From a virus (taxonomy: Duplodnaviria > Heunggongvirae > Uroviricota > Caudoviricetes), in IMG/VR virus record IMGVR_UViG_3300027836_000006: 19,652 nucleotides of DNA, one strand, 5' to 3'. Every line of letters starts with the position of its first letter. The first letter of the stretch is position 1. The notes below the pieces were generated by a model. That model had not been told where the DNA came from, did not search any database, and saw only the letters and a program-made list of their open reading frames with translations. This document shows positions 7,385 through 17,885 of the stretch, piece by piece. A program made the translations under genes and the position numbers.

Positions 7385-7472
7385 GGATCTTGTTCCCCAT
7401 TGCCGGCTGTAACCCGGTAGCCATTAATAAGTGGGGTGGCGGCAAGTAGTTCGATTCTATCAAGGTCCACCA
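7385..7472 (+). tRNA. atypical D-armless tRNA-Tyr(GUA)-like RNA
   Basis: 8-bp acceptor, gccgg-ctGTAac-ccggt arm, 4-bp T stem, ACCA. Confidence 0.6.
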
Positions 7473-7478
7473 ATTTTT

Positions 7479-7552
7479 TCCCGGATAGTTAAATGGTATA
7501 ACAATCGGCTGATAACCGGTCATTACAAGTTCGATTCTTGTTCTGGGAACCA
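7479..7552 (+). tRNA. tRNA-Ile(GAU)
   Basis: cloverleaf, loop ctGATaa, CCA. Confidence 0.9.
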
Positions 7553-7557
7553 AGTTT

Positions 7558-7616
7558 AGGATAGCAACAGCAAATTTAAAATTTCACTGTAAATGAAAAC
7601 AAAATGCTATCCTGTT
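7558..7616 (+). ncRNA. ACAGCAA-motif RNA 1 with Tyr(GUA) anticodon hairpin
   Basis: aggatagca/tgctatcct helix, acagcaa, tttca-ctGTAaa-tgaaa. Confidence 0.7.
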
Positions 7617-7623
7617 TAATTAT

Positions 7624-7698
7624 ACTGTCGTCGTCTAGTGGCTAGGACGCTACCCTTTCAAGGTGGAGAAGCGGGATCGATACCCGTCGACAGTACCA
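7624..7698 (+). tRNA. tRNA-Glu(UUC)
   Basis: cloverleaf, loop ctTTCaa, CCA. Confidence 0.88.
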
Positions 7699-7702
7699 AT
7701 AT

Positions 7703-7777
7703 ACCGCAGTAGTCCTCTGGGAGGGCAACGGATTGTCTATCCGACTTAGGCGAGTTCGATTCTCGTCTGCGGTGCCA
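7703..7777 (+). tRNA. tRNA-Asp(GUC), divergent
   Basis: loop ttGTCta, T arm, GCCA; weak D arm. Confidence 0.8.
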
Positions 7778-7785
7778 AAATTTAT

Positions 7786-7863
7786 TGTCCGAGAGCAAGC
7801 ATGGTGTAGGCGCTTCGCTGTTAACGAAGAATGAGCTAGGTTCGATCCCTAGTCGGACAGCCA
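7786..7863 (+). tRNA. tRNA-Asn(GUU)
   Basis: loop ctGTTaa, GCCA. Confidence 0.85.
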
Positions 7864-7870
7864 ATCAATT

Positions 7871-7945
7871 GGGGGAAGTAGTGGGCTACGGTATGGGCTT
7901 GCACCCTGTATGACTACAAGAGTTCGATTCTCTGGTCCTCCACCA
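7871..7945 (+). tRNA. tRNA-Ala(UGC), divergent
   Basis: loop ctTGCac, G3-U70 pair, A73, CCA. Confidence 0.75.
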
Positions 7946-7952
7946 ATTTTAT

Positions 7953-8028
7953 CTCTCTAAAGCGTTATCTGGTTGCGTACACGGTTTGGGGCCGTGTGGT
8001 CAAGGTTCGAATCCTTGTAGGGAGACCA
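7953..8028 (+). tRNA. tRNA-Pro(UGG)
   Basis: loop ttTGGgg, CCA. Confidence 0.88.
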
Positions 8029-8036
8029 ATTTTTAT

Positions 8037-8110
8037 GCCTCGGTAGTTTAATGGTAGAACTACGGTGTTACATACCGTTGATGACAGTTCGATTCTGTAA
8101 CGAGGTACCA
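8037..8110 (+). tRNA. tRNA-Val(UAC)
   Basis: loop gtTACat (unusual G32), CCA. Confidence 0.82.
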
Positions 8111-8116
8111 ATTTAT

Positions 8117-8200
8117 AGATAGCAGTGCGTGGGACGCAAGCTGGTTTGCTAAACCGGTCTACTGGAAACGGTAACAGTTCGAGTCTGTTGCTATCTGCCA
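8117..8200 (+). tRNA. tRNA-Ser(GCU)
   Basis: loop ttGCTaa, long variable arm, GCCA. Confidence 0.85.
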
Positions 8201-8205
8201 ATCAT

Positions 8206-8294
8206 GGAAGGTTAACTGGACTGGGTCCAGCTCTGTCTTGAAAACAGAAGGTGTGCGTGAGCGCATAGAGTTCGATTCTACTATCCTTCCTCCA
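8206..8294 (+). tRNA. tRNA-Ser(UGA), divergent
   Basis: loop ctTGAaa, long variable arm, bulged T stem, U73. Confidence 0.78.
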
Positions 8295-8300
8295 AATTTT

Positions 8301-8374
8301 GCTCTATTAGTATAATGGTAGTACACCGGTTTTGTAGTCCGGTAATCGTGGTTCGATTCCTCGATGGAGCACCA
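8301..8374 (+). tRNA. tRNA-Thr(UGU)
   Basis: loop ttTGTag, CCA. Confidence 0.82.
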
Positions 8375-8379
8375 AGTTA

Positions 8380-8443
8380 AGGATGTTAACAGCAAATTTT
8401 ATACACTAGACTTTTAATCTAACCAGTAAAATACATCCTGTTT
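8380..8443 (+). ncRNA. ACAGCAA-motif RNA 2 with Lys(UUU) anticodon hairpin
   Basis: aggatgt/acatcct helix, acagcaa, taga-ctTTTaa-tcta. Confidence 0.7.
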
Positions 8444-8448
8444 TATTT

Positions 8449-8524
8449 GCTACTTTAGCTGATGTGGTCATAGCGGCGGTCTGAAGAACCGTTGAAAGAG
8501 GTTCGATTCCTCTAGGTAGCACCA
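8449..8524 (+). tRNA. tRNA-Phe(GAA)
   Basis: loop ctGAAga, CCA. Confidence 0.9.
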
Positions 8525-8529
8525 AGTTT

Positions 8530-8590
8530 AGGATACTAACAGCAAACTTAAAAAATTCAATTTGAACTTGAAAAGTAAATGTATCCTGTT
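8530..8590 (+). ncRNA. ACAGCAA-motif RNA 3 with Ser(UGA)-like anticodon hairpin
   Basis: aggatac/gtatcct helix, acagcaa, ttcaa-ttTGAac-ttgaa. Confidence 0.68.
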
Positions 8591-8608
8591 TTATAGTAAG
8601 GAACTCAA

Positions 8609-8737
8609 ATGGCAAATGTCAAAAAAGGTAACCTAACAGCGCCTCCACAATGGTGGAAGCATTTGAAAGATTGGAAACGAGTGTTTTGGAAATCAGAACG
8701 CCAAGCCCAAAAGAAAAATATCAACAAAGGAGAATGA
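8609..8737 (+). CDS. small basic Trp-rich protein (42 aa)
   Basis: AAGGA RBS; MANVKKGNLTAPPQWWKHLKDWKRVFWKSERQAQKKNINKGE. Confidence 0.65.
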   Translation: MANVKKGNLTAPPQWWKHLKDWKRVFWKSERQAQKKNINKGE

Positions 8738-8738
8738 C

Positions 8739-8762
8739 ATGAAACGTACAGGTAAACGTTAG
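8739..8762 (+). CDS. micro-ORF MKRTGKR
   Basis: AAGGAG RBS, 7 codons, TAG, followed by a hairpin. Confidence 0.4.
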   Translation: MKRTGKR

Positions 8763-8824
8763 TGTCATCTTTGACCCCCGTATGGTCTTAGATGGCACGT
8801 AAAAGAAAATAATTACGAATCCAT

Positions 8825-8899
8825 CCACGCTAAACTTTAGTGGCGAAGTACCCGGCTCTTAACCGGACTAACTGAGTTCGATTCTCAGAGCGTGGACCA
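8825..8899 (+). tRNA. tRNA-Lys(CUU)
   Basis: loop ctCTTaa, CCA. Confidence 0.88.
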
Positions 8900-8902
8900 T
8901 AT

Positions 8903-8976
8903 GGGGGTATAACTTAACGGCAAAGTAGTAGGCTTTTAACCTATTAATCAGAGTTCGATTCTCTGTGCCCCTACCA
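8903..8976 (+). tRNA. tRNA-Lys(UUU)
   Basis: loop ctTTTaa, CCA. Confidence 0.9.
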
Positions 8977-9103
8977 TATGCTAACACACTTTCAATCTGA
9001 ATTGACAGATACAAACAACCAAGGGGAGCCACTGGGTTCATTCCAGTTTCATCCTGAATTGACAGGAACAAGGTTGTAAGGGGAGCCGAGTGTGTTAACA
9101 TAT
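8976..9103 (+). ncRNA. structured RNA candidate with internal tandem duplication
   Basis: closing helix taacacact/agtgtgtta; two ctg-aattga-cag hairpins each followed by aaggggagcc. Confidence 0.55.
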
Positions 9104-9179
9104 GGTAACGTAGCATAGTGGCTAATGCACCACCTTCATACGGTGTTTATCGTCGGTTCGAGTCCGACCGTTACTACCA
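9104..9179 (+). tRNA. tRNA-Met or Ile2 (CAU)
   Basis: loop ttCATac, CCA; elongator type. Confidence 0.85.
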
Positions 9180-9182
9180 AGT

Positions 9183-9399
9183 TTTGTAAGTGTCAGCAAG
9201 AGAATGTCACGCTATAAAGGTTTCTTCGAAGGACTGATATAGTAGAAGGTTAATGGGTTCAACTCCCACCCGCGGGGAACTGCGGAGGTCTGTAACGGAG
9301 ACTATACTGGACTAGTATTCCAAGTGACGTACCGAGTCCCGTCCGGACTAGTTAATTCGGGTGAATGGTTGCTATAACGATGGAGCAACTACTTACAAA
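9183..9399 (+). ncRNA. long variant CAGCAA-motif RNA 4
   Basis: tttgtaagt/acttacaaa helix followed by gtCAGCAA; internal hairpins. Confidence 0.45.
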
Positions 9400-9463
9400 T
9401 TCAACAGACCCCCGCTTTGTCAGGTTGTGCGGTGAACAACTTGACACTTTATTAAATAAAGAT

Positions 9464-9704
9464 GTTAGTAAAAGGTTTAAGGTGTAATAGTGTTTCGAAA
9501 GAGCTTTGCGAATGTCGGAAGCATTCAATAAGAGAAGTTATAGACTTCAACACTCGCTGACGGATAGAGTAAGGTATTGTTTTCAGCATTGACCTTACAG
9601 TCAGCAATGCATTCCATGTTGGGCGAGACTAAGAGAGCAGATCTGAAAAATCTGGGTCGCCAGTGCTAACGCTAAAACCAAAACTCTGCGAATCTTTTAC
9701 TAAC
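9464..9704 (+). ncRNA. orphan ~240-nt structured RNA candidate
   Basis: 11-bp closing helix gttagtaaaag/cttttactaac between tRNAs; no long ORF. Confidence 0.45.
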
Positions 9705-9713
9705 TTCTTTTAT

Positions 9714-9787
9714 GCGGGTATGATGTAATGGTAACCTGAAACCTTGCCAAGGTTTATTCGCGAGTTCGATTCTCGCTACCCGCTCCA
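9714..9787 (+). tRNA. tRNA-Gly(GCC)
   Basis: loop ttGCCaa, UCCA. Confidence 0.9.
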
Positions 9788-9839
9788 AATTATGGCTCCT
9801 AAACTTGTTCGCATAGCGTCCTCTAGGAGTTTTCTTTTT

Positions 9840-9968
9840 AGGATACTAACAGCAAATTAAAATTCGCCTTCTAAGCGAGTGGTCGTTGGTTCGAGTCCAA
9901 CATTTGATCAAGCCTAAAAAGCAGTCAAATTAGCTCAGTTGGTAGAGCACTTTAAAATGTATCCTGTT
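9840..9968 (+). ncRNA. ACAGCAA-motif RNA 5 containing a circularly permuted tRNA-Arg(UCU)
   Basis: order: anticodon arm, V, T arm, acceptor 3', linker, acceptor 5', D arm, inside aggatac/gtatcct helix. Confidence 0.8.
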
Positions 9969-9976
9969 TTTTCTGT

Positions 9977-10050
9977 TCCCGGATTGTGTAATGGTAGCAC
10001 AACAGACTTTGACTCTGTTAGCCTAGGTTCGATCCCTAGTCCGGGTGCCA
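9977..10050 (+). tRNA. tRNA-Gln(UUG)
   Basis: loop ctTTGac, GCCA. Confidence 0.9.
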
Positions 10051-10055
10051 AATAT

Positions 10056-10130
10056 ATCGCTATAGTATAATGGATAATACACTACGCTACGAACGTGGGA
10101 ATAGAGGTTCGATTCCTTTTGGCGGTACCA
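10056..10130 (+). tRNA. tRNA-Arg(ACG)
   Basis: loop ctACGaa, CCA. Confidence 0.88.
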
Positions 10131-10136
10131 ATCTAT

Positions 10137-10212
10137 GGTGTCTTTAGTGTAGTGGCCTGCACCCTGCTCTGTGAAAGCGGTAGTACCGGATCGATACCGG
10201 TAAGGCACCCCA
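10137..10212 (+). tRNA. tRNA-His(GUG)
   Basis: G-1/C73, loop ctGTGaa, CCA. Confidence 0.88.
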
Positions 10213-10218
10213 AACAAT

Positions 10219-10295
10219 GCCCCTCTGGCGCAATTGGTAGACGCGGCTCTCTCAAAAGGAGTGTGTTCCCCGTTCGAGTCGGGGGAGGGGCACCA
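10219..10295 (+). tRNA. tRNA-Leu(CAA) with short variable loop
   Basis: Leu-type D arm, loop ctCAAaa, 5-nt variable region, ACCA. Confidence 0.8.
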
Positions 10296-10454
10296 AGTTT
10301 CGAAGATAGACGATAGTGTTGAGTCCCTTGTATGCTAGTGCCCTATTCTTGAGCATGACACACCAGTAGCTGTACAAGGTAGTTTAAACTCTGCTATTCG
10401 AGACAATCCAGCGAGTCCTTGAGAAAGATAGTTGGGCGCTTTGAAAACCTATTT

Positions 10455-10528
10455 GCTCTTATAGTTAAATGGCAGAACACCTCTTTGGTATGGAGGCAAT
10501 GAAAGTTCGATTCTTTCTAAGAGCACCA
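10455..10528 (+). tRNA. tRNA-Thr(GGU)
   Basis: loop ttGGTat, CCA. Confidence 0.82.
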
Positions 10529-10535
10529 GTTATAT

Positions 10536-10610
10536 CTGGCTATCGTATAATGGATAATACATAGAGCTTCTACCTCTAGAATGTGGGTTCGATTCCTGCT
10601 AGCCGGACCA
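10536..10610 (+). tRNA. tRNA-Arg(UCU)
   Basis: loop ctTCTac, CCA. Confidence 0.88.
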
Positions 10611-10723
10611 TATTAGAGCATCGAGTGAGACGGCATTGGTGTGCTGAAACTTCGTATAGATATGCCTAGGCGTCACATGTCTGAAGTATCTCTTTACTGG
10701 TTCGAATCCAGTATGCTCTAATA
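10611..10723 (+). ncRNA. tRNA-like RNA (acceptor + T arm, non-cloverleaf core)
   Basis: 11-bp terminal helix and actgg-ttcgaat-ccagt T arm. Confidence 0.5.
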
Positions 10724-10730
10724 TGGTTTT

Positions 10731-10805
10731 CGGGCTTTGGTGAAATGGATATCATTTCGGTCTTCGAAACCGACGGTGTAGGTTCGATTCCTACAAGCCC
10801 GGCCA
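10731..10805 (+). tRNA. tRNA-Arg(UCG)
   Basis: loop ctTCGaa, GCCA. Confidence 0.88.
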
Positions 10806-10834
10806 AAGTATTTCAAAAATAGTTCATAAAAGCG

Positions 10835-10863
10835 TTGACAGATTGCGCTAGATGTTATATAAT
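10835..10863 (+). promoter_or_regulatory. consensus sigma70 promoter inside the tRNA array
   Basis: TTGACA-N17-TATAAT. Confidence 0.85.
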
Positions 10864-10917
10864 AGTCACATACTAAGCAATTAGTAAAAACGCTCTTTAA
10901 AAATTTAATGTGACAAT

Positions 10918-10992
10918 GACGCCATCGTCTATCGGTTAGGACACTAGGTTTTCATCCTGGCAAGCGGGGTTCGATTCCCCGTGGCGTCTCCA
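10918..10992 (+). tRNA. tRNA-Glu(UUC)
   Basis: loop ttTTCat, CCA. Confidence 0.9.
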
Positions 10993-11132
10993 TTGTTAAG
11001 TACTATAAGGTATCGTGTAGGGACGCTTACACTATCCGGGTCAAAGCTGCCGGCGACTGATCCTGACATAACTGCATCGGCATTGAGTATGTTTAGCGAC
11101 TATCTCAGAATTTGCAAATAGTACTTAACAAT
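10992..11132 (+). ncRNA. orphan stem-closed RNA candidate
   Basis: perfect 15-bp helix attgttaagtactat/atagtacttaacaat. Confidence 0.45.
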
Positions 11133-11142
11133 GGAAAATTAT

Positions 11143-11226
11143 GCGCAAGTGGTGGAATGGTATACACGGTGGTCTTAGAAGCCACTGCCGAAAGGATTGA
11201 GAGTTCGAGTCTCTCCTTGCGCACCA
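11143..11226 (+). tRNA. tRNA-Leu(UAG)
   Basis: loop ctTAGaa, variable arm, CCA. Confidence 0.92.
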
Positions 11227-11231
11227 AACAT

Positions 11232-11316
11232 GGAGTAGAAGCATCAATGGTGATGCAGTGGACTGTAAATCCGCCGCCTTCGGGCACGCCTGGTTCGATC
11301 CCAGGATACTCCACCA
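11232..11316 (+). tRNA. tRNA-Tyr(GUA)
   Basis: loop ctGTAaa, variable arm, CCA. Confidence 0.92.
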
Positions 11317-11398
11317 AATCAAAGTAGGGAAATCTTCCTAAGTACACGGAAGTACTAAGTGTTAGAGATAATGAAAATTATCCCCCTGCGCCAAATTA

Positions 11399-11488
11399 GG
11401 AAATGTGACAGAGTCCGGTTTATTGTAGCAGTCTTGAAAACTGCCGTGTCGAAAGGCACCGTGAGTTCGAATCTCACCGTTTCCGCCA
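11399..11488 (+). tRNA. tRNA-Ser(UGA)
   Basis: loop ctTGAaa, variable arm, GCCA. Confidence 0.92.
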
Positions 11489-11493
11489 AGTTT

Positions 11494-11612
11494 GCTTGCT
11501 AAAGTTTAACTACACTGACAACCGATAAGAAGCGTATAAGTCGACCCGTACGTGAAAGGCTCAGGAAGATAAGGAGTTAGACAGTTCCGTTCGAATCGGA
11601 TAGCGAGCACCA
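11494..11612 (+). ncRNA. tRNA-like RNA with CCA end and no cloverleaf core
   Basis: 8-bp acceptor gcttgcta/tagcgagc, tccg-ttcgaat-cgga T arm, ACCA. Confidence 0.6.
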
Positions 11613-11617
11613 TAGTT

Positions 11618-11692
11618 GGTCTCATAGTATATCGGTTAGTATAATGGCCTGTCACGCCGTAGGGACGAGTTCGATTCTCGTTGAGACCGCCA
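11618..11692 (+). tRNA. tRNA-Asp(GUC)
   Basis: loop ctGTCac, GCCA. Confidence 0.92.
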
Positions 11693-11698
11693 AATAAT

Positions 11699-11772
11699 GT
11701 ATCTCTAATGTAATGGCAGCATGACAGTCTCCAAAACTGTTCGTCGGGGTTCGAGTCCCTGGAGGTACGCCA
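11699..11772 (+). tRNA. tRNA-Trp(CCA)
   Basis: loop ctCCAaa, GCCA. Confidence 0.9.
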
Positions 11773-11786
11773 GTTAAATATAAGTG

Positions 11787-11815
11787 TTGACAGTAGTTAA
11801 CACAGAAAGTATAAT
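11787..11815 (+). promoter_or_regulatory. consensus sigma70 promoter
   Basis: TTGACA-N17-TATAAT. Confidence 0.85.
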
Positions 11816-11820
11816 AGACA

Positions 11821-12048
11821 ATGTATAAAATAATAGGTAAAGAAGAAACTTTCAAAACACTCACACTCGGTGAAGCAATGAATGTTGCTAAGATGATGAA
11901 CGAATTTGTAAGAATTGTTGGAACAGATTTTGAAGTAGTAGGACGATTTGGAGTTGACTCTGTGGTAGATGGTAAGTGCCCAGATGGTGTTACTTATGAT
12001 TGGAACAAAGCAAGCCGCATCGGCAGAGTAAAGAAAGAAAGAGTTTAA
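11821..12048 (+). CDS. hypothetical protein (probably leaderless)
   Basis: ATG 5 nt after the -10 box; 75 aa. Confidence 0.65.
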   Translation: MYKIIGKEETFKTLTLGEAMNVAKMMNEFVRIVGTDFEVVGRFGVDSVVDGKCPDGVTYDWNKASRIGRVKKERV

Positions 12049-12053
12049 AGATT

Positions 12054-12138
12054 GCGACTGTGGTGAAATAGGTAGACACAAGAGACTTAAAATCTCTCGC
12101 CGAAGGGCGTCCCGGTTCGATTCCGGGCAGTCGCACCA
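12054..12138 (+). tRNA. tRNA-Leu(UAA)
   Basis: loop ctTAAaa, variable arm, CCA. Confidence 0.92.
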
Positions 12139-12164
12139 AATAGAAGTGGTAAGTAAAAGAGTAA

Positions 12165-12254
12165 GGAGCGGTGGCCGAACGGTAAGGCAGCGGATTGCTA
12201 ATCCGTACAACGTGTTAAAGCGTTGACTGGGTTCGACTCCCAGTCGCTCCGCCA
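12165..12254 (+). tRNA. tRNA-Ser(GCU)
   Basis: loop ttGCTaa, variable arm, GCCA. Confidence 0.92.
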
Positions 12255-12272
12255 ATATTAAAAAGGAAAAAT

Positions 12273-12500
12273 ATGTTGAAACCAACGAGTACGTACAAAA
12301 TGTCAAAGACACTTAAAACAAGTCTTGCACTTAGTAAATTTAAAACCTTAGAACAACGTCACGCATGGAAACGTGCTTGTATTGACGCTGAACTATGTAG
12401 CAAGATTGTTGTTAAGAGTGCGCCGCGTGATAAAAATGCGCCGCGTGGAACTGCTAACTATCAGACTAACGATACTGGTACAGCAAGTACTCAAGTATAA
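12273..12500 (+). CDS. small basic hypothetical protein
   Basis: AAGGA RBS; 75 aa. Confidence 0.6.
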   Translation: MLKPTSTYKMSKTLKTSLALSKFKTLEQRHAWKRACIDAELCSKIVVKSAPRDKNAPRGTANYQTNDTGTASTQV

Positions 12501-12507
12501 GAATTAT

Positions 12508-12583
12508 TCCGCCTTAGCTCAGTTGGTAGAGTAGATGACTGTTAATCATTTGGTCCCTGGTTCGAGCCCAGGAGGTGGAGCCA
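12508..12583 (+). tRNA. tRNA-Asn(GUU)
   Basis: loop ctGTTaa, GCCA. Confidence 0.92.
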
Positions 12584-12593
12584 GGTTTATGTG

Positions 12594-12669
12594 GGGGGTG
12601 TAGCTCATTTGGGAGAGCGCCTGCTTTGCAAGCAGGATGTAGCAAGTTCGATCCTTGTCACCTCCACCA
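12594..12669 (+). tRNA. tRNA-Ala(UGC)
   Basis: G3-U70, loop ttTGCaa, ACCA. Confidence 0.92.
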
Positions 12670-12680
12670 AGATTTAGGAG

Positions 12681-12875
12681 ATGTTAGATATGGCAGGTAA
12701 AGGTAGTAAAGCAAGACCGTTAAGTGTTGATACTAAAACATTTGATAGTAATTGGGATTTAGCTTTTGGAAAAAAGAAAAAGACTGAGGCTGAATTATTT
12801 GACGAAAAGGTTGTAATGAAAGATGAATACTTTGATTTAGACGTCGATCCAGAAAATCCAGATCAAGTAAAATAA
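12681..12875 (+). CDS. small hypothetical protein
   Basis: AGGAG RBS; MAGKGSKARP... (alternative start 12690). Confidence 0.65.
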   Translation: MLDMAGKGSKARPLSVDTKTFDSNWDLAFGKKKKTEAELFDEKVVMKDEYFDLDVDPENPDQVK

Positions 12876-12890
12876 CAAGAGGATACTAGC

Positions 12891-13076
12891 ATGGCAAAAG
12901 GTGCCGGTGGTAAAAAAGTAAGAATAGCAAGTCCAATGCTAACAAAAAATGGAAAACAAAGATTAGGCCCATTAAGTTTAGAACAGTTAAAAACGATGTT
13001 AGAAAAATCTAGTCGTCCAAAAGACAAAGCAAAGATTCAAAGTCGTGTTAAAATACTAGAAGCAAGAATTAAGTAG
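12891..13076 (+). CDS. small basic hypothetical protein
   Basis: GAGG RBS; ends TAG immediately followed by TAA. Confidence 0.65.
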   Translation: MAKGAGGKKVRIASPMLTKNGKQRLGPLSLEQLKTMLEKSSRPKDKAKIQSRVKILEARIK

Positions 13077-13083
13077 TAACAAT

Positions 13084-13159
<76 letters not shown>

Positions 13160-13166
13160 TAGTTTT

Positions 13167-13282
13167 AGGATAGATGACAGCAAACCCTTAGCGGTGAAAG
13201 CCGCATCTGATGGTCTGGGGTAACCCGGACGAGCATGTTAAGCTGGATCATGTTTAAAAAATTCGGCAAAGCCTATCCTGCT
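13167..13282 (+). ncRNA. ACAGCAA-motif RNA 6 (multi-hairpin cargo)
   Basis: aggatag/ctatcct helix, acagcaa, gcgg-tgaaag-ccgc and gtctggg-gtaa-cccggac hairpins. Confidence 0.6.
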
Positions 13283-13495
13283 TAACCCCGTCTTACTATT
13301 TCTACGTTAACGAAATAGCGTCCCTGTAACGATAGACCAGGGGGTACACTAGGACCTGACCTCACAGTCCCCGGTTATGGGGATACTGGAAACTGCCTAG
13401 GGTGAGGTATAACACCAATGCCAGAAGAACAAATGTTATGGACAGAGTAACTGCTCAGTTTAGGGCTCATGTGGTGTGAGTAGCTAGACACTTTA

Positions 13496-13579
13496 TATAA
13501 ACACACTTTGGCTTGGCTATAAGCTAGGAAGTAAGGACTGCACACCACCGTAGGGAAAAGTGACAAGTGTGTTTTTATA
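13496..13579 (+). ncRNA. stem-closed RNA candidate (ACACACU/AGUGUGU helix)
   Basis: aaacacact/agtgtgttt closing helix. Confidence 0.35.
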
Positions 13580-13582
13580 AAG

Positions 13583-13657
13583 TGCGGGGTTAGTTTAATG
13601 GTAAAACAGCAGATTTCCAATCTTCGGTCGAGAGTTCGATTCTCTCACTCCGCTCCA
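13583..13657 (+). tRNA. tRNA-Gly(UCC)
   Basis: loop ttTCCaa, UCCA. Confidence 0.9.
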
Positions 13658-13669
13658 TAAGGATATAAT

Positions 13670-13822
13670 ATGCCAATGTATGAAACAACTGTGCGTACAC
13701 CGCAAGGTGAAGAAAAGAAGCGTATCTATGCGGACACACCGCAAGAGGCTAAAAAACTTTTTGAACAACTGTATGGTGGCCCGAGAGCAGTTCCTTATAT
13801 ACCACACATAATAGCAAGTTAA
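13670..13822 (+). CDS. small hypothetical protein (50 aa)
   Basis: AAGGA RBS; MPMYETTVRTPQGEEKKRIYADTPQEAKKLFEQLYGG... Confidence 0.6.
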   Translation: MPMYETTVRTPQGEEKKRIYADTPQEAKKLFEQLYGGPRAVPYIPHIIAS

Positions 13823-13825
13823 TTT

Positions 13826-13903
13826 CGGAATGTAGCGCAGTCTGGTTAGCGCATCGCGTTTGGGACGCGAGGGTCGTAGGTTCGAATCCTACTATTCCGA
13901 CCA
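13826..13903 (+). tRNA. tRNA-Pro(UGG)
   Basis: loop ttTGGga, CCA. Confidence 0.92.
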
Positions 13904-13909
13904 ATCAAT

Positions 13910-13985
13910 CGCGGGATGGAGAAGGTGGTATCTCGGAAGTCTCATAAGCTTCAGATCGTCGGTTCGACTCCGACTCCCGCAACCA
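13910..13985 (+). tRNA. initiator-like tRNA-Met(CAU)
   Basis: CGCGGG start with C1:A72 mismatch, loop ctCATaa; lacks the three G-C anticodon-stem pairs. Confidence 0.82.
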
Positions 13986-13990
13986 TTTTC

Positions 13991-14052
13991 CAATCGTTAG
14001 TTTAATAAAAACGTATAACTCACAGTTATGAGATGTTCATAGAACACGATTG
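13991..14052 (+). ncRNA. miniature tRNA-like cloverleaf (CAC anticodon, 3-nt T loop)
   Basis: caatcgt/acgattg, gttt/aaac, tataa-ctCACag-ttatg, gttc-ata-gaac. Confidence 0.5.
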
Positions 14053-14057
14053 TTTTT

Positions 14058-14149
14058 GCCAGCGAGACTGGGTAGTCAGAGAGGTTTTATAAACCTTTTA
14101 GCGCCAGATTAGCGTTCTTGATAGGGTTCGAATCCCTACGCTGGTACCA
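14058..14149 (+). tRNA. atypical long-variable-arm tRNA with UAU anticodon
   Basis: gccagcg/cgctggt, tiny D arm, loop ttTATaa, variable stem, canonical T arm, ACCA. Confidence 0.65.
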
Positions 14150-14161
14150 ACACCAAAGTAG

Positions 14162-14190
14162 TTGACTTTATGTCAATTATGCTATATAAT
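14162..14190 (+). promoter_or_regulatory. sigma70 promoter
   Basis: TTGACT-N17-TATAAT. Confidence 0.8.
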
Positions 14191-14211
14191 AATGCTTTAC
14201 AAAGGAAACTT

Positions 14212-14466
14212 ATGAGACAAGCAAACGAAGTGAGAAAGCCCCTGGATCTTAGCCGTGGCCCTTCCATTGATATGGAAAAATGTGTGGCGGCAGTAGGCGG
14301 GAATCGATTTAATTTAGTTTTGATTGCTTCTGCTCGTACCAGAGAAATCCGTCGACAACATGCCCATAGCGATAAAAGAGAACATGTACATCCAATTGTT
14401 ACTGCTCTCGCTGACATCGAAGCAGGCGGAATTGAATCAGGCAAGTATCTAGCTAAAGTAAAATAA
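14212..14466 (+). CDS. rpoZ: RNA polymerase omega subunit-like protein
   Basis: AAGGA RBS; GNRFNLVLIASARTREI and VTALADIEAG resemble omega NRFDLVLVAARRARQ and VIALREIEEG. Confidence 0.8.
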   Translation: MRQANEVRKPLDLSRGPSIDMEKCVAAVGGNRFNLVLIASARTREIRRQHAHSDKREHVHPIVTALADIEAGGIESGKYLAKVK

Positions 14467-14471
14467 AATTT

Positions 14472-14546
14472 GCCTGGTTAGCTCAGGGGTAGAGCGTCTC
14501 GTTTACACCGAGAGGGTCGGCAGTTCGAAACTGTCACCAGGTACCA
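14472..14546 (+). tRNA. tRNA-Val(UAC)
   Basis: loop ttTACac, CCA. Confidence 0.92.
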
Positions 14547-14570
14547 TAATAATAACAGGAAGAGTAGAGA

Positions 14571-14813
14571 ATGTCTGACCCTTTAGATAGTTTCGAAAGT
14601 AATAACGAAGAAGAAGCAGAAATTGCTCAGATTCTTAATTTACAACGAAACACAGCGGCAGTAGATGCCATTAGAGCAAAAATTGGTAAAGGTCCAAGCC
14701 TAAGCCATTGCGAGGAATGTGGAGAAGAAATTCCCAAGGCTCGACAAACAGCTATTGCTGGTTGTAGAATGTGTATTGAATGCCAAACGTATTCTGAACG
14801 ATGGAAAAAGTAA
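14571..14813 (+). CDS. TraR/DksA-family C4 zinc-finger protein
   Basis: MSDPLD N terminus; CEECGEEIPKARQ...CRMCIECQ. Confidence 0.88.
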   Translation: MSDPLDSFESNNEEEAEIAQILNLQRNTAAVDAIRAKIGKGPSLSHCEECGEEIPKARQTAIAGCRMCIECQTYSERWKK

Positions 14814-15715
14814 AACTTGAATTGAACAACGACCATAGTGTTGGTCTTGGAGACAATTTGTGCTTACTTTCTGCTTTGGCAAATATTCCAGCACCTATTG
14901 AACTGTATGTTAATAACGACCACGATACGTATGATAGATTAACTCACTATAAACGTATCTTTCGTATTCCTAAAGATCAGTTAGAAATTTTTCCAACGGA
15001 AGCAAGTGGTAATTTTAACAATGTTGGTTGGCCTGTAAAGTTCTTTACAGATTATTATAAGCCACTTTTTGTAAATTTAAAAAGTGGTATTGTTAAACTT
15101 AACACTAATCCGTCGGAAAAGAAATGTATAGCAATAGCGGCACAGTTTGACAGCAATCCGGAACAGGCAGATCAATGGCCATGGTGTCGAGGTCGGCCAA
15201 TTGAGTACTGGGCGCAAATATTTGCGCATGTCAAAAAAATGGGCTTCGATGTAATTACTGTTGATCATGCCCAACATGACTTAGAACATAAAATCGAATT
15301 GTTGACAAAACATTGTAGAGCAATTATTAGCTATGAAGGCGGTATGGCTCATTTAGCCCATATGATTGGACTACCTTGCTTCTTAGTTGACTGGCAATAT
15401 CCGAGTCCTAGTACTGTACTAGGAAATTTTCATTGTGACTTTGTACACAAAACAAATTCAGTTTACATACTACGAGATGATACCGAACTGTTTACTTGGA
15501 ATAAGGATGAGTTTGGCAAGAAGATTTTTGAGTTAGAACAAGGAAAAGGAAATAATCGTTTAGTAAATGGAGATTGTAATCTTAATTTTGATGGGCCGGG
15601 GTGTAAAGGCGATATAACAGTAACATCAACGTATAAAGACAAAATTTTATTAAAAACATCTCCAATTTTTGGTGATAGTAAAGTAACCGAATTATTATCT
15701 AAATATTACACGTAA
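14801..15715 (+). CDS. putative glycosyltransferase (GT9/heptosyltransferase-like)
   Basis: GLGDNL N-terminal motif; IISYEGGMAHLAHMIGLP resembles DSGxxHLA motif. Confidence 0.55.
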   Translation: MEKVKLELNNDHSVGLGDNLCLLSALANIPAPIELYVNNDHDTYDRLTHYKRIFRIPKDQLEIFPTEASGNFNNVGWPVKFFTDYYKPLFVNLKSGIVKLNTNPSEKKCIAIAAQFDSNPEQADQWPWCRGRPIEYWAQIFAHVKKMGFDVITVDHAQHDLEHKIELLTKHCRAIISYEGGMAHLAHMIGLPCFLVDWQYPSPSTVLGNFHCDFVHKTNSVYILRDDTELFTWNKDEFGKKIFELEQGKGNNRLVNGDCNLNFDGPGCKGDITVTSTYKDKILLKTSPIFGDSKVTELLSKYYT

Positions 15716-15718
15716 CAT

Positions 15719-15796
15719 GTAGCGGTGGCAGAGCGGCCCATTGCAACGGATTGCAAATCCGTAAAACCGTGAGTTCAAATCTCACCCGCTACTCCA
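15719..15796 (+). tRNA. tRNA-Cys(GCA)
   Basis: loop ttGCAaa, U73, CCA. Confidence 0.9.
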
Positions 15797-16475: not shown

Positions 16476-17885
16476 ATGAACGCATTTGTAAACGCAGTAG
16501 CAAACCAAGAAGCCCGTACCGAAAACGGTATGAAGGCACGTAAGTCAACAGCCAAGGCTACAGTTGACTTGTTTTACAAGATTGGCGCAAGCCGTGGCAA
16601 GGACATCACTCGTGATTTCACCGCGGCATACGTTGAAAACTCTGATGTAGCACTACGCATCGCACAATGGGCACGTGATGTCCGCGGTGGTGCTGGTGAA
16701 CGTCAGTTGTTCCGCGATATTCTAGTACATCTAGAAAAGCGTGACCCAGACGCCGCTTTGGCTCTTCTAAAGAAGATTCCAGAAGTTGGTCGTTGGGATG
16801 ACATCTTTGTCTTCACCAACCCAGACCTGAAGTCAGCCGCTTATACCATGTTGGGCGATGCCCTTCGTGCTAAGAACGGTTTGGCTGCAAAGTGGACTCC
16901 TCGTAAGGGTAAGATTGCGGCTGAAGTACGAGCATTCTTCGGAATGTCTCCAAAGCAGTACCGCAAGTCATTGGTAACAATGACAACCGTTGTTGAAACC
17001 CAAATGTGTGCAGGAGATTGGGATAACATCAACTTCAGTCACGTACCTTCTGTTGCTTCACGCAACTACAAGAAGGCATTCAACCGTCACACACCTGCGT
17101 TTGCAGAGTATGTGGCCAAGTTGGTAAGTGGTGATAAGACTGTTAAGGTTAACGCCAGCGCAATCTTCCCGCATGACGTGCTGAAGGGCATTGCTCACAG
17201 CTACACCAAGCTGGACAAGACAGAAACTGACCATGTGATCGCACAATGGGACGCTCTGCCAAACTACGTAGGTGACGCAAGTATCCTACCTCTAGTTGAC
17301 GTGTCTGGTTCGATGACTACATCTGTTGGTGGTAACACCGCAGTGCGTTGTTTGGATGTGGCAGTTTCACTGGGCTTGTACCTTGCGGACAAGAACAAGG
17401 GTGCGTTCAAGGACACATTCTTGACTTTCTCAAGCAAGCCAGAACTTGTTACCCTAAAGGGTAACATTGTTCAAAAGGTGGAACAAATGAGCAAGAGCAA
17501 CTGGGAAATGAGCACTAACCTACATGCCGCTATGGACAAGATCCTAAGCGTTGCGGTTAAGGGTTCAGTACCAGCTAGCGACATGCCAGCCATGTTGCTA
17601 ATCTTGTCAGACATGCAGTTCGACCAATGCGCTCGTTACGACGATAGCGCAATGGAAATGATTGAACGTAAGTTCGAAGCCGCAGGCTACAGCATGCCAC
17701 AAATTGTTTTCTGGAACCTAAACAGTTCAGATAACGTGCCTGTTAAGGCAGACAAGAGTGGTGCCGCATTGGTAAGTGGATTCAGTCCATCAATCATGAC
17801 TAGCTTGCTAGCCGCTGATTTGGATCAATTCACTCCAGAAGGCATCATGCTTAAGACAGTAATGAGTGATCGTTACGCTCTGTAA
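16476..17885 (+). CDS. TROVE/Ro60-like (DUF2828-type) protein with C-terminal vWA domain
   Basis: RDVRGGAGERQLFR, GRWDD, AAKWTPRK helical region; vWA MIDAS DVSGSM, ILSDMQFD, IVFWNL. Confidence 0.8.
   Translation: MNAFVNAVANQEARTENGMKARKSTAKATVDLFYKIGASRGKDITRDFTAAYVENSDVALRIAQWARDVRGGAGERQLFRDILVHLEKRDPDAALALLKKIPEVGRWDDIFVFTNPDLKSAAYTMLGDALRAKNGLAAKWTPRKGKIAAEVRAFFGMSPKQYRKSLVTMTTVVETQMCAGDWDNINFSHVPSVASRNYKKAFNRHTPAFAEYVAKLVSGDKTVKVNASAIFPHDVLKGIAHSYTKLDKTETDHVIAQWDALPNYVGDASILPLVDVSGSMTTSVGGNTAVRCLDVAVSLGLYLADKNKGAFKDTFLTFSSKPELVTLKGNIVQKVEQMSKSNWEMSTNLHAAMDKILSVAVKGSVPASDMPAMLLILSDMQFDQCARYDDSAMEMIERKFEAAGYSMPQIVFWNLNSSDNVPVKADKSGAALVSGFSPSIMTSLLAADLDQFTPEGIMLKTVMSDRYAL

Follow-up and report, generated by a model that had tools for sequence, protein, structure and literature searches.

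The reason why phages carry transfer RNA (tRNA) genes is a 50-year-old question, to which codon supply and escape from tRNA-targeting immunity are the main answers. Among the closest described systems are the cluster C1 mycobacteriophages, which are rich in tRNAs and encode ~33 of them per phage (PMC10264068). Here we describe a tRNA array within a stretch of 19,652 nucleotides (nt), called the window throughout, which is part of a large uncultured phage (IMG/VR record IMGVR_UViG_3300027836_000006). Like the C1 mycobacteriophage arrays (PMC10264068) and the tRNA array units of prokaryotes (PMC4758250), it is a dense run of ~40 tRNA genes on one strand, with short spacers and nearly all amino acids represented, in a large phage genome. 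Unlike these arrays, it contains two distinct sets of tRNAs that share ten anticodons, meet at a sharp border and lie under separate upstream control. We read the locus, with roughly even confidence for and against, as a composite of two working tRNA sets, one of phage type and gated by an attenuator, the other cell-like and driven by promoters, which would let translation survive the loss of cell-like tRNAs.

There is precedent for phage tRNAs that escape tRNA-targeting defences, as proposed or demonstrated for variants of the anticodon loop (PMC10264068), for a phage tRNA neutralising PARIS (PMC11464382) and for phage tRNAs evading retron effectors (PMC11555353). As in these systems, the phage-type tRNA at our locus is unlike its cell-type counterpart with the same anticodon, and its proposed role is to sustain translation when host-type tRNAs are destroyed. 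Unlike in these systems, the main differences here lie in the D arm and the overall fold, the anticodon loops are identical in three of the ten pairs, and the phage also carries the cell-like version itself. Arrays of tRNA genes and tRNAs that evade nucleases are both known from phages; the apparently new element is the conserved two-set design with the same anticodons under separate control. A literature search did not find such a two-set layout in phages, which, as the coverage was incomplete, is weak evidence of novelty.

Ten anticodons shared by two tRNA sets

We found that ten anticodons occur once within 7385-8374 and once more past a promoter at 10835, just as the initial annotation of the window had listed them: Tyr GUA (7385-7473 and 11232-11316), Glu UUC (7624-7698 and 10918-10992), Asp GUC (7703-7777 and 11618-11692), Asn GUU (7786-7863 and 12508-12583), Ala UGC (7871-7945 and 12594-12669), Pro UGG (7953-8028 and 13826-13903), Val UAC (8037-8110 and 14472-14546), Ser GCU (8117-8200 and 12165-12254), Ser UGA (8206-8294 and 11399-11488), and Thr UGU (8301-8374 and 13084-13159). 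Ten of the first 11 elements are doubled, with Ile GAU (7479-7552) alone among them lacking a second copy, and every second copy lies past 10835. Such a block-wise split of the pairs has P ~9e-9 under random gene order, according to an exact calculation on blocks that were defined post hoc. Every tRNA gene of the array lies on the plus strand and has its CCA encoded. ARAGORN called 37 tRNAs in the window at default settings and, at relaxed settings, added the upstream Ala, the upstream Ser UGA and the downstream Tyr, a class II tRNA; with these calls included, nine of the ten pairs were called directly. The upstream Tyr was missed by ARAGORN, relaxed settings included, and by Rfam, but its homologues show it to be a conserved tRNA-like RNA. 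Past the promoter, the Tyr and Pro genes matched the Rfam tRNA model at 33.6 and 66.9 bits, respectively, and the other partners were found by both ARAGORN and Rfam.

The downstream copies had also been described as the more canonical ones, which held for nine of the ten pairs upon scoring with the Rfam tRNA model (RF00005) and failed for Glu (55.4 bits upstream versus 53.9 downstream). Upstream scores were 40.7 bits for Asp, 46.3 for both Pro and Val, 58.2 for Thr and 63.5 for Ile, while the upstream Asn, Ala, Ser GCU and Tyr yielded no report from the tRNA model even at E<=10, and the upstream Ser UGA matched the tRNA-Sec model only (47.6 bits versus a gathering score of 47). The downstream copies scored 50.8-66.9 bits, apart from the low-scoring Tyr. 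Hence the gathering threshold of the tRNA model (29 bits) was reached by all ten downstream partners and by 6 of the 11 upstream genes. Upstream and downstream copies of a pair are 50-66% identical. Because tRNAs of the array that are unrelated to each other agree to a similar degree (53 +/- 5%), we reject a recent duplication as the origin of the pairs.

The two sets differ strongly in their likeness to cellular tRNAs, for which Escherichia coli served as a stand-in. Upon blastn comparison with 5,426 complete E. coli genomes, the segment 7385-8374 gave zero matches and 8440-10810 a single one, while 10900-14560 matched all 5,426 genomes, in 77,179 places in total. The phage-type set 1 (7385-10805) comprises 23 genes for 18 amino acids. 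Its second part is a middle block (8449-10805, plus strand) of 12 phage-type tRNAs without a second copy, namely Phe, Lys CUU, Lys UUU, Met, Gly GCC, Gln, Arg ACG, His, Leu CAA, Thr GGU, Arg UCU and Arg UCG, with interspersed hairpin/Y-RNA-like modules. The border between phage-type and cell-like tRNAs is marked by a consensus promoter on the plus strand at 10835-10863 (TTGACA, 17 nt, TATAAT). Behind it, the cell-like set 2 (10918-15796) comprises 17 genes for 15 amino acids, most of them reading with U34 or G34. In a phage collection, its Thr gene is 84-90% identical to annotated tRNA-Thr genes in records of coliphages, Pseudomonas jumbo phages, Salmonella and Acinetobacter.

The proposed comparison of gene order among related phages bore out the layout, as the same block order recurs. 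We gathered relatives through a Ro-like gene downstream of the array as an anchor and then through a motif from the odd D arm of the upstream Ala, which led to >200 related loci; a PfkB-like gene (5406-6161) was discarded as an anchor because its relatives are <=73% identical and do not adjoin tRNA arrays. In the relatives, the first block holds Tyr-like, Ile, Asn, Gln, Glu, Asp, Cys, Arg, Ala, Pro, Val and Thr genes and is followed by Phe, Lys, Lys, Met and others; the final part is a core of Arg UCG, Glu, Leu, Tyr, Ser, Asp, Trp, Leu, Ser, Asn, Ala, Thr, Gly, Pro, Met, Ile, Arg, Val and Cys. The lineages of upstream-type and downstream-type tRNAs are distinct across these loci. Among 45 non-identical arrays with at least 30 tRNAs each, which are phylogenetically non-independent and many of which were found through the Ala motif, the anticodons most often doubled were those for Glu (78%), Asn (73%), Pro (69%), Asp (68%), Ala (62%) and Thr (60%). 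The remaining anticodons were doubled in <=29% of the arrays, Met CAU aside, for which multiple genes are expected.

Several further features lie within or near the array. A repeated module at 7556-7620, 8387-8447, 8525-8597 and 9843-9975 has a stem closed by AGGATA...TATCCTG and a motif ACAGCAA; its longest copy gives a weak match (35 bits) to YrlA, a Y RNA-like RNA. The gene used as the anchor (16476-17885) encodes a DUF2828/DUF7788 protein, labelled 'RNA-binding protein' in PHROG and Ro-like, which has relatives of 87-96% identity on IMG/VR contigs of up to 356 kilobases (kb) and is followed by an rIIA-like gene. A tRNA with anticodon UAU for the Ile codon AUA (14058-14149), 92 nt long with a long variable arm, recurs at >=80% identity in 22 relatives and at >90% in 18. 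Away from the main array, at 957-1030, lies a tRNA with a CUA anticodon, an amber suppressor (44.6 bits with Rfam; labelled 'Pyl' by ARAGORN). Several related arrays (for instance L125, L154 and L126) likewise contain CUA tRNAs, and some of these arrays UUA (ochre) tRNAs as well, which may point to stop-codon reassignment in some genes. Against GenBank phages, megablast with the array returned only short matches to single tRNAs, covering ~1% of the query, and no close relative. A more distant blastn comparison of the upstream block returned only isolated matches of 74-82% to single phage tRNAs, among them tRNAs of cultured Pseudomonas and Klebsiella phages matched by the upstream Ile, Thr and Pro.

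Folds and identity elements of the upstream copies

All genes of both blocks (the 11 upstream genes and all downstream ones) have a 7-base-pair (bp) acceptor stem and, behind it, a discriminator base with CCA; U33 is found throughout, and position 37 is a purine in all but the upstream Asp. A standard D arm, with a stem of 3-4 bp that closes ahead of the anticodon arm, occurs in all downstream copies and, upstream, in Ile, Glu, Asp, Pro, Val and Thr; it is atypical in the upstream Ala, Asn, Ser UGA and Ser GCU and absent from the upstream Tyr-like RNA. The divergent anticodon loops reported earlier were read correctly (upstream versus downstream: Asp ttGTCta versus ctGTCac, Val gtTACat versus ttTACac, Thr ttTGTag versus ctTGTaa), and overall 7 of the 10 pairs differ at loop positions 32, 37 or 38. 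Many of the oddities are retained among homologues: U37 of the upstream Asp is kept in 31 of 36 distinct sequences, and a U31.U39 mismatch of the upstream Thr is invariant. The upstream Asn has a D stem of 2-3 bp with an 11-nt D loop, and in the upstream Ala a D hairpin of 4 bp and 4 nt, with one covarying pair, stands straight after the acceptor stem, with G3:U70 kept. The upstream Glu has A1-U72 and A73, and the upstream Pro C1-G72 and A73; for the upstream Ser GCU, only two homologues were found.

The most divergent member is the Tyr-like RNA at the head of the block, which has the loop CTGTAAC, discriminator A73 and an encoded CCA. Folding of the single sequence was inconspicuous (z = -0.97), and the structure emerged only from the family alignment, which confirmed that the D arm is missing, as had been claimed. 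Across 35 distinct homologues the RNA is conserved, with G1-C72 in 35 of 35 and an invariant A73. A strand CCCYR at the D position pairs with YRGGG inside the loop of a 3-bp variable arm; the two helices both covary and cross each other in these sequences, forming a pseudoknot. A TGG conserved after the D-position strand stands where the GG of the D loop normally acts, a correspondence that we mention as speculation. We know of no described tRNA with a pseudoknot between D arm and variable arm; a literature search found none either, although its incomplete coverage makes this weak evidence of novelty.

The upstream Ser UGA represents another unusual fold, with the U73 and the bulged T stem that had been noted before. 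tRNA-Sec and the allo-tRNAs, which are non-canonical cloverleaves, are its nearest likenesses: it shares with the tRNA-Sec (Rfam RF01852)/allo-tRNA type a 6-bp D stem, a long variable arm and a short, interrupted T stem, the D stem covarying within the family and the T arm being split by an internal bulge. Unlike tRNA-Sec, the family has the anticodons UGA or CGA, which read serine codons, in place of UCA, and its covariation favours a 7-bp acceptor stem over one of 9 bp. The CGA members come from two relatives (L232 and L209), where the unusual fold and U73 are kept; a serine identity of the family fits with this change of anticodon.

We found marks of purifying selection in the upstream lineages. 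In five families, the fraction of paired cells in the alignment and the number of pairs changed on both sides were 100% and 10 of 20 for Asp, 92.9% and 9 of 20 for Ala, 90.5% and 9 of 21 for Thr, 94.7% and 12 of 27 for Ser UGA, and 98.9% and 15 of 25 for the Tyr-like RNA. In each of them, 0 of 500 shuffles reached the observed covariation score, and controls with slid partners fell to 35-56% paired. The synthetase identity elements, as given by the E. coli identity sets, are essentially invariant in upstream-type tRNAs: G3:U70 in 51 of 51 distinct Ala sequences, C1-G72/A73 in 21 of 21 for Pro, G1-C72/A73 in 44 of 48 for Thr, G1-C72/G73 in 36 of 38 for Asp, and U1-A72/G73 in 6 of 6 for Asn. The upstream lineages recur in dozens of viral contigs or more, with at least 120 contigs, as long as 383 kb, carrying the upstream-type Ala motif. 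By these patterns and the identity rules, the upstream copies are under selection and very probably chargeable.

Control regions of the two sets

Leader-peptide transcription attenuators are known from amino-acid operons, as in the trp, his and leu leaders, and the region before set 1 resembles them. Three tandem promoters of sigma-70 type head the array within 6533-6745 on the plus strand, starting at 6533 (12 of 12 consensus positions), 6617 (11/12) and 6717 (12/12), and 2-5 such sites precede the upstream block in the relatives L043, L030, L053, L028 and L070. Behind them lies a leader open reading frame (ORF) of 49 codons (6804-6953, plus strand) in which all 20 amino acids are present. 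Among 42 distinct homologous leader peptides of 41-67 amino acids, 36 contain all 20, against a random expectation of ~1-16% depending on peptide size. The ORF contains an antiterminator strand (6927-6933) that pairs with 6985-6991 and thereby overlaps an intrinsic terminator, with its stem at 6988-6994/7004-7010 and a T-run at 7011-7021, the whole element spanning 6927-7021 on the plus strand. In eight relative loci the T-run is invariant and changes in the terminator stem are compensated; the antiterminator pairing, read by eye, changes in step across relatives. As in the trp, his and leu leaders, a short ORF ends just 5' of an antiterminator/terminator pair with a T-run, ahead of the controlled genes; unlike in these, the leader holds all 20 amino acids without enrichment of any single residue, and the controlled genes are tRNAs. 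Judged by its sequence, the segment 6804-7021 thus has the features of a leader-peptide attenuator, with a leader that is presumably translated.

Between terminator and first tRNA lies a structured leader RNA of ~120 nt with three hairpins (7187-7310, plus strand), in which 18 of 21 predicted pairs show compensatory changes across 27 sequences and the single-stranded stretches are strongly conserved. It has no match in Rfam, and it raises the question of a processing signal or a sensor. An ORF of 49 codons with a strong ribosome-binding site (7036-7185) lies between the terminator and this RNA and is absent at that place in L070 and L028. A motif with TTTAAT, likewise conserved, lies just 5' of the Tyr-like RNA; it was considered as a promoter and is probably none, since it makes up one side of a conserved hairpin with a loop of variable length.

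From the terminator to the border, between 7021 and 10835, we found no promoter matching the consensus at 11 or more of 12 positions. Past the border, the promoter before the downstream Glu is kept in nearly all relatives examined, and those before Val and before the Ro-like gene are likewise conserved. A second internal consensus promoter lies at 11787-11815 and one matching at 11/12 positions at 14162-14190, before an omega-like ORF and the downstream Val (both promoters on the plus strand). Since the upstream unit follows an attenuator with no consensus promoter in between, and the downstream set has conserved sigma-70 promoters, it is plausible that the two sets are regulated differently. 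Of two small ORFs inside the array, that at 14170-14466 matches RNA polymerase Rpb6/omega (E 5e-07) and that at 14571-14813 a DksA/TraR zinc finger (E 9e-11). Their products could possibly act as modulators of host RNA polymerase at stable-RNA promoters.

Competing readings of the array

In the reading of two working sets, set 1 would consist of old phage-lineage tRNAs, many with odd D arms or anticodon loops, that keep acceptor stems, T loops, CCA and identity marks. Its transcription would probably be raised when ribosomes stall for want of any charged tRNA, since three promoters, a leader ORF with all 20 amino acids and an antiterminator/terminator switch precede it. Set 2 would supply cell-like tRNAs run by conserved consensus sigma-70 promoters. 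For the ten shared anticodons, the most heavily used codon families would have two structurally unrelated tRNAs at their disposal, and phage translation could continue if the cell-like tRNAs, both those of the host and those of set 2, were depleted or cleaved. Three points of this reading are inferred: set 1 would be induced, the tRNAs of both sets would be charged and used, and those of set 1 would escape whatever removes cell-like tRNAs. The initial annotation had proposed an inducible, nuclease-resistant backup set next to a constitutive one. What stands of this is the existence of two sets that differ in structure, ancestry and upstream control (attenuator versus conserved sigma-70 promoters); nuclease resistance is conjectural, and the idea of the gated unit as a backup of the ten shared anticodons alone needs amending, as the unit appears to continue through the 12 tRNAs without a downstream copy. 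That the gated set may act as a spare supply evading tRNA-targeting defences fits both the architecture and the published precedent.

Several observations weigh against this reading. The 12 tRNAs of set 1 that have no promoter-driven copy fit a main set better than a spare one, and in some arrays of 38 tRNAs (for example L229) the upstream-type Ala is the sole Ala tRNA. A promoter-like site at 8568 (10/12; its counterpart in L043 matches at 12/12) may split the unit and allow the middle block to be transcribed independently of the attenuator. The three promoters of consensus type that stand in tandem before the attenuator point to considerable read-through at the basal level. Escape through the anticodon loop cannot be general, because the loops are identical in 3 of the 10 pairs (Asn, Ser GCU and Ser UGA) and the U33-G34-U35 core is the same in both copies for Tyr, Asn and Asp. 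Furthermore, the division into 23 phage-type genes before 10835 and a cell-like block behind it follows from the E. coli blastn contrast, in which E. coli is a proxy only. Finally, codon load accounts in large part for the choice of doubled anticodons: the highest loads among the 2,584 codons of the window all belong to doubled families, namely Ala (226), Val (184), Asp (173), Thr (170, a load shared with the separate Thr GGU gene), Glu (140) and Asn (139).

This last point is what one would expect if supply were simply matched to demand, with two genes for each heavily used family that has a single anticodon, copies that were acquired separately and are both used alike, and a divergence that avoids deletion by recombination. 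Single-anticodon families of low use indeed remain single (Gln 68, His 67, Cys 40 and Trp 36 codons), amino acids with several isoacceptors (Lys, Leu, Gly and Arg) are not doubled, and for single upstream tRNAs, copies of 97-100% identity exist in different relatives, which points to gene-by-gene shuffling. We take this explanation for the main and a serious rival, though rather less likely than not. The share of arrays with a doubled anticodon is 69% for Pro (107 codons) and 5% for Phe, whose load is similar (110 codons), and in the window Tyr (86 codons) and Ser UCN (56) are doubled despite their lower load. Dosage also leaves unexplained why every pair combines a gated, phage-type copy with a cell-like one driven by promoters, and why oddities such as U37 in Asp and the remodelled D arms are conserved.

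A hedge on host range, with the sets tuned to the synthetases or to the modification or processing enzymes of different hosts, would account for the many upstream tRNAs that begin with a base other than G (A1, U1 or C1), for Glu copies that differ in pair 1-72 and in the discriminator, and for arrays that are highly mosaic among relatives. We consider it improbable, since in Ala, Pro, Asn, Thr and Tyr the two copies share the same bacterial identity marks, giving no sign of two synthetase rule sets. It is very unlikely that the upstream copies stand outside translation altogether, be it as uncharged decoys that soak up nucleases or as decaying pseudogenes, the latter having been named at the outset as what would overturn the idea of a backup set. 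Such a fate would agree with the missing D arm of the Tyr-like RNA and with the Rfam scores of Tyr, Asn, Ala, Ser GCU and Asp, which are low or lacking altogether. Every helix in all tested upstream families shows compensatory changes, however, and identity marks and CCA, needless for a decoy or a pseudogene, are essentially invariant. Together with the wide recurrence of these lineages and the 38-tRNA array in which the upstream-type Ala is the only Ala tRNA, this led us to reject decay.

The reading of two working sets can be taken further. A large clade of uncultured jumbo phages may carry a hard-wired dual system, in which a near-complete, remodelled and 'orthogonal-looking' set, including a pseudoknotted tRNA, would be switched on by a leader with all 20 amino acids as an emergency supply against tRNA-destroying defences, while the cell-like set would meet routine demand; we put this forward tentatively, with somewhat more doubt than belief. 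At this locus and in at least dozens of related arrays, both kinds of tRNA for the same anticodons lie adjacent to each other and under different control. Because both kinds coexist for the same anticodons, the ideas of codon supply and of escape from immunity become directly testable on matched pairs. The upstream set, moreover, constitutes a natural collection of odd folds that look chargeable, from an Asp with U37 and an Ala with a hairpin D arm to a pseudoknotted Tyr-like RNA and a Sec-like Ser, which are of interest for tRNA structure and for the engineering of orthogonal tRNAs.

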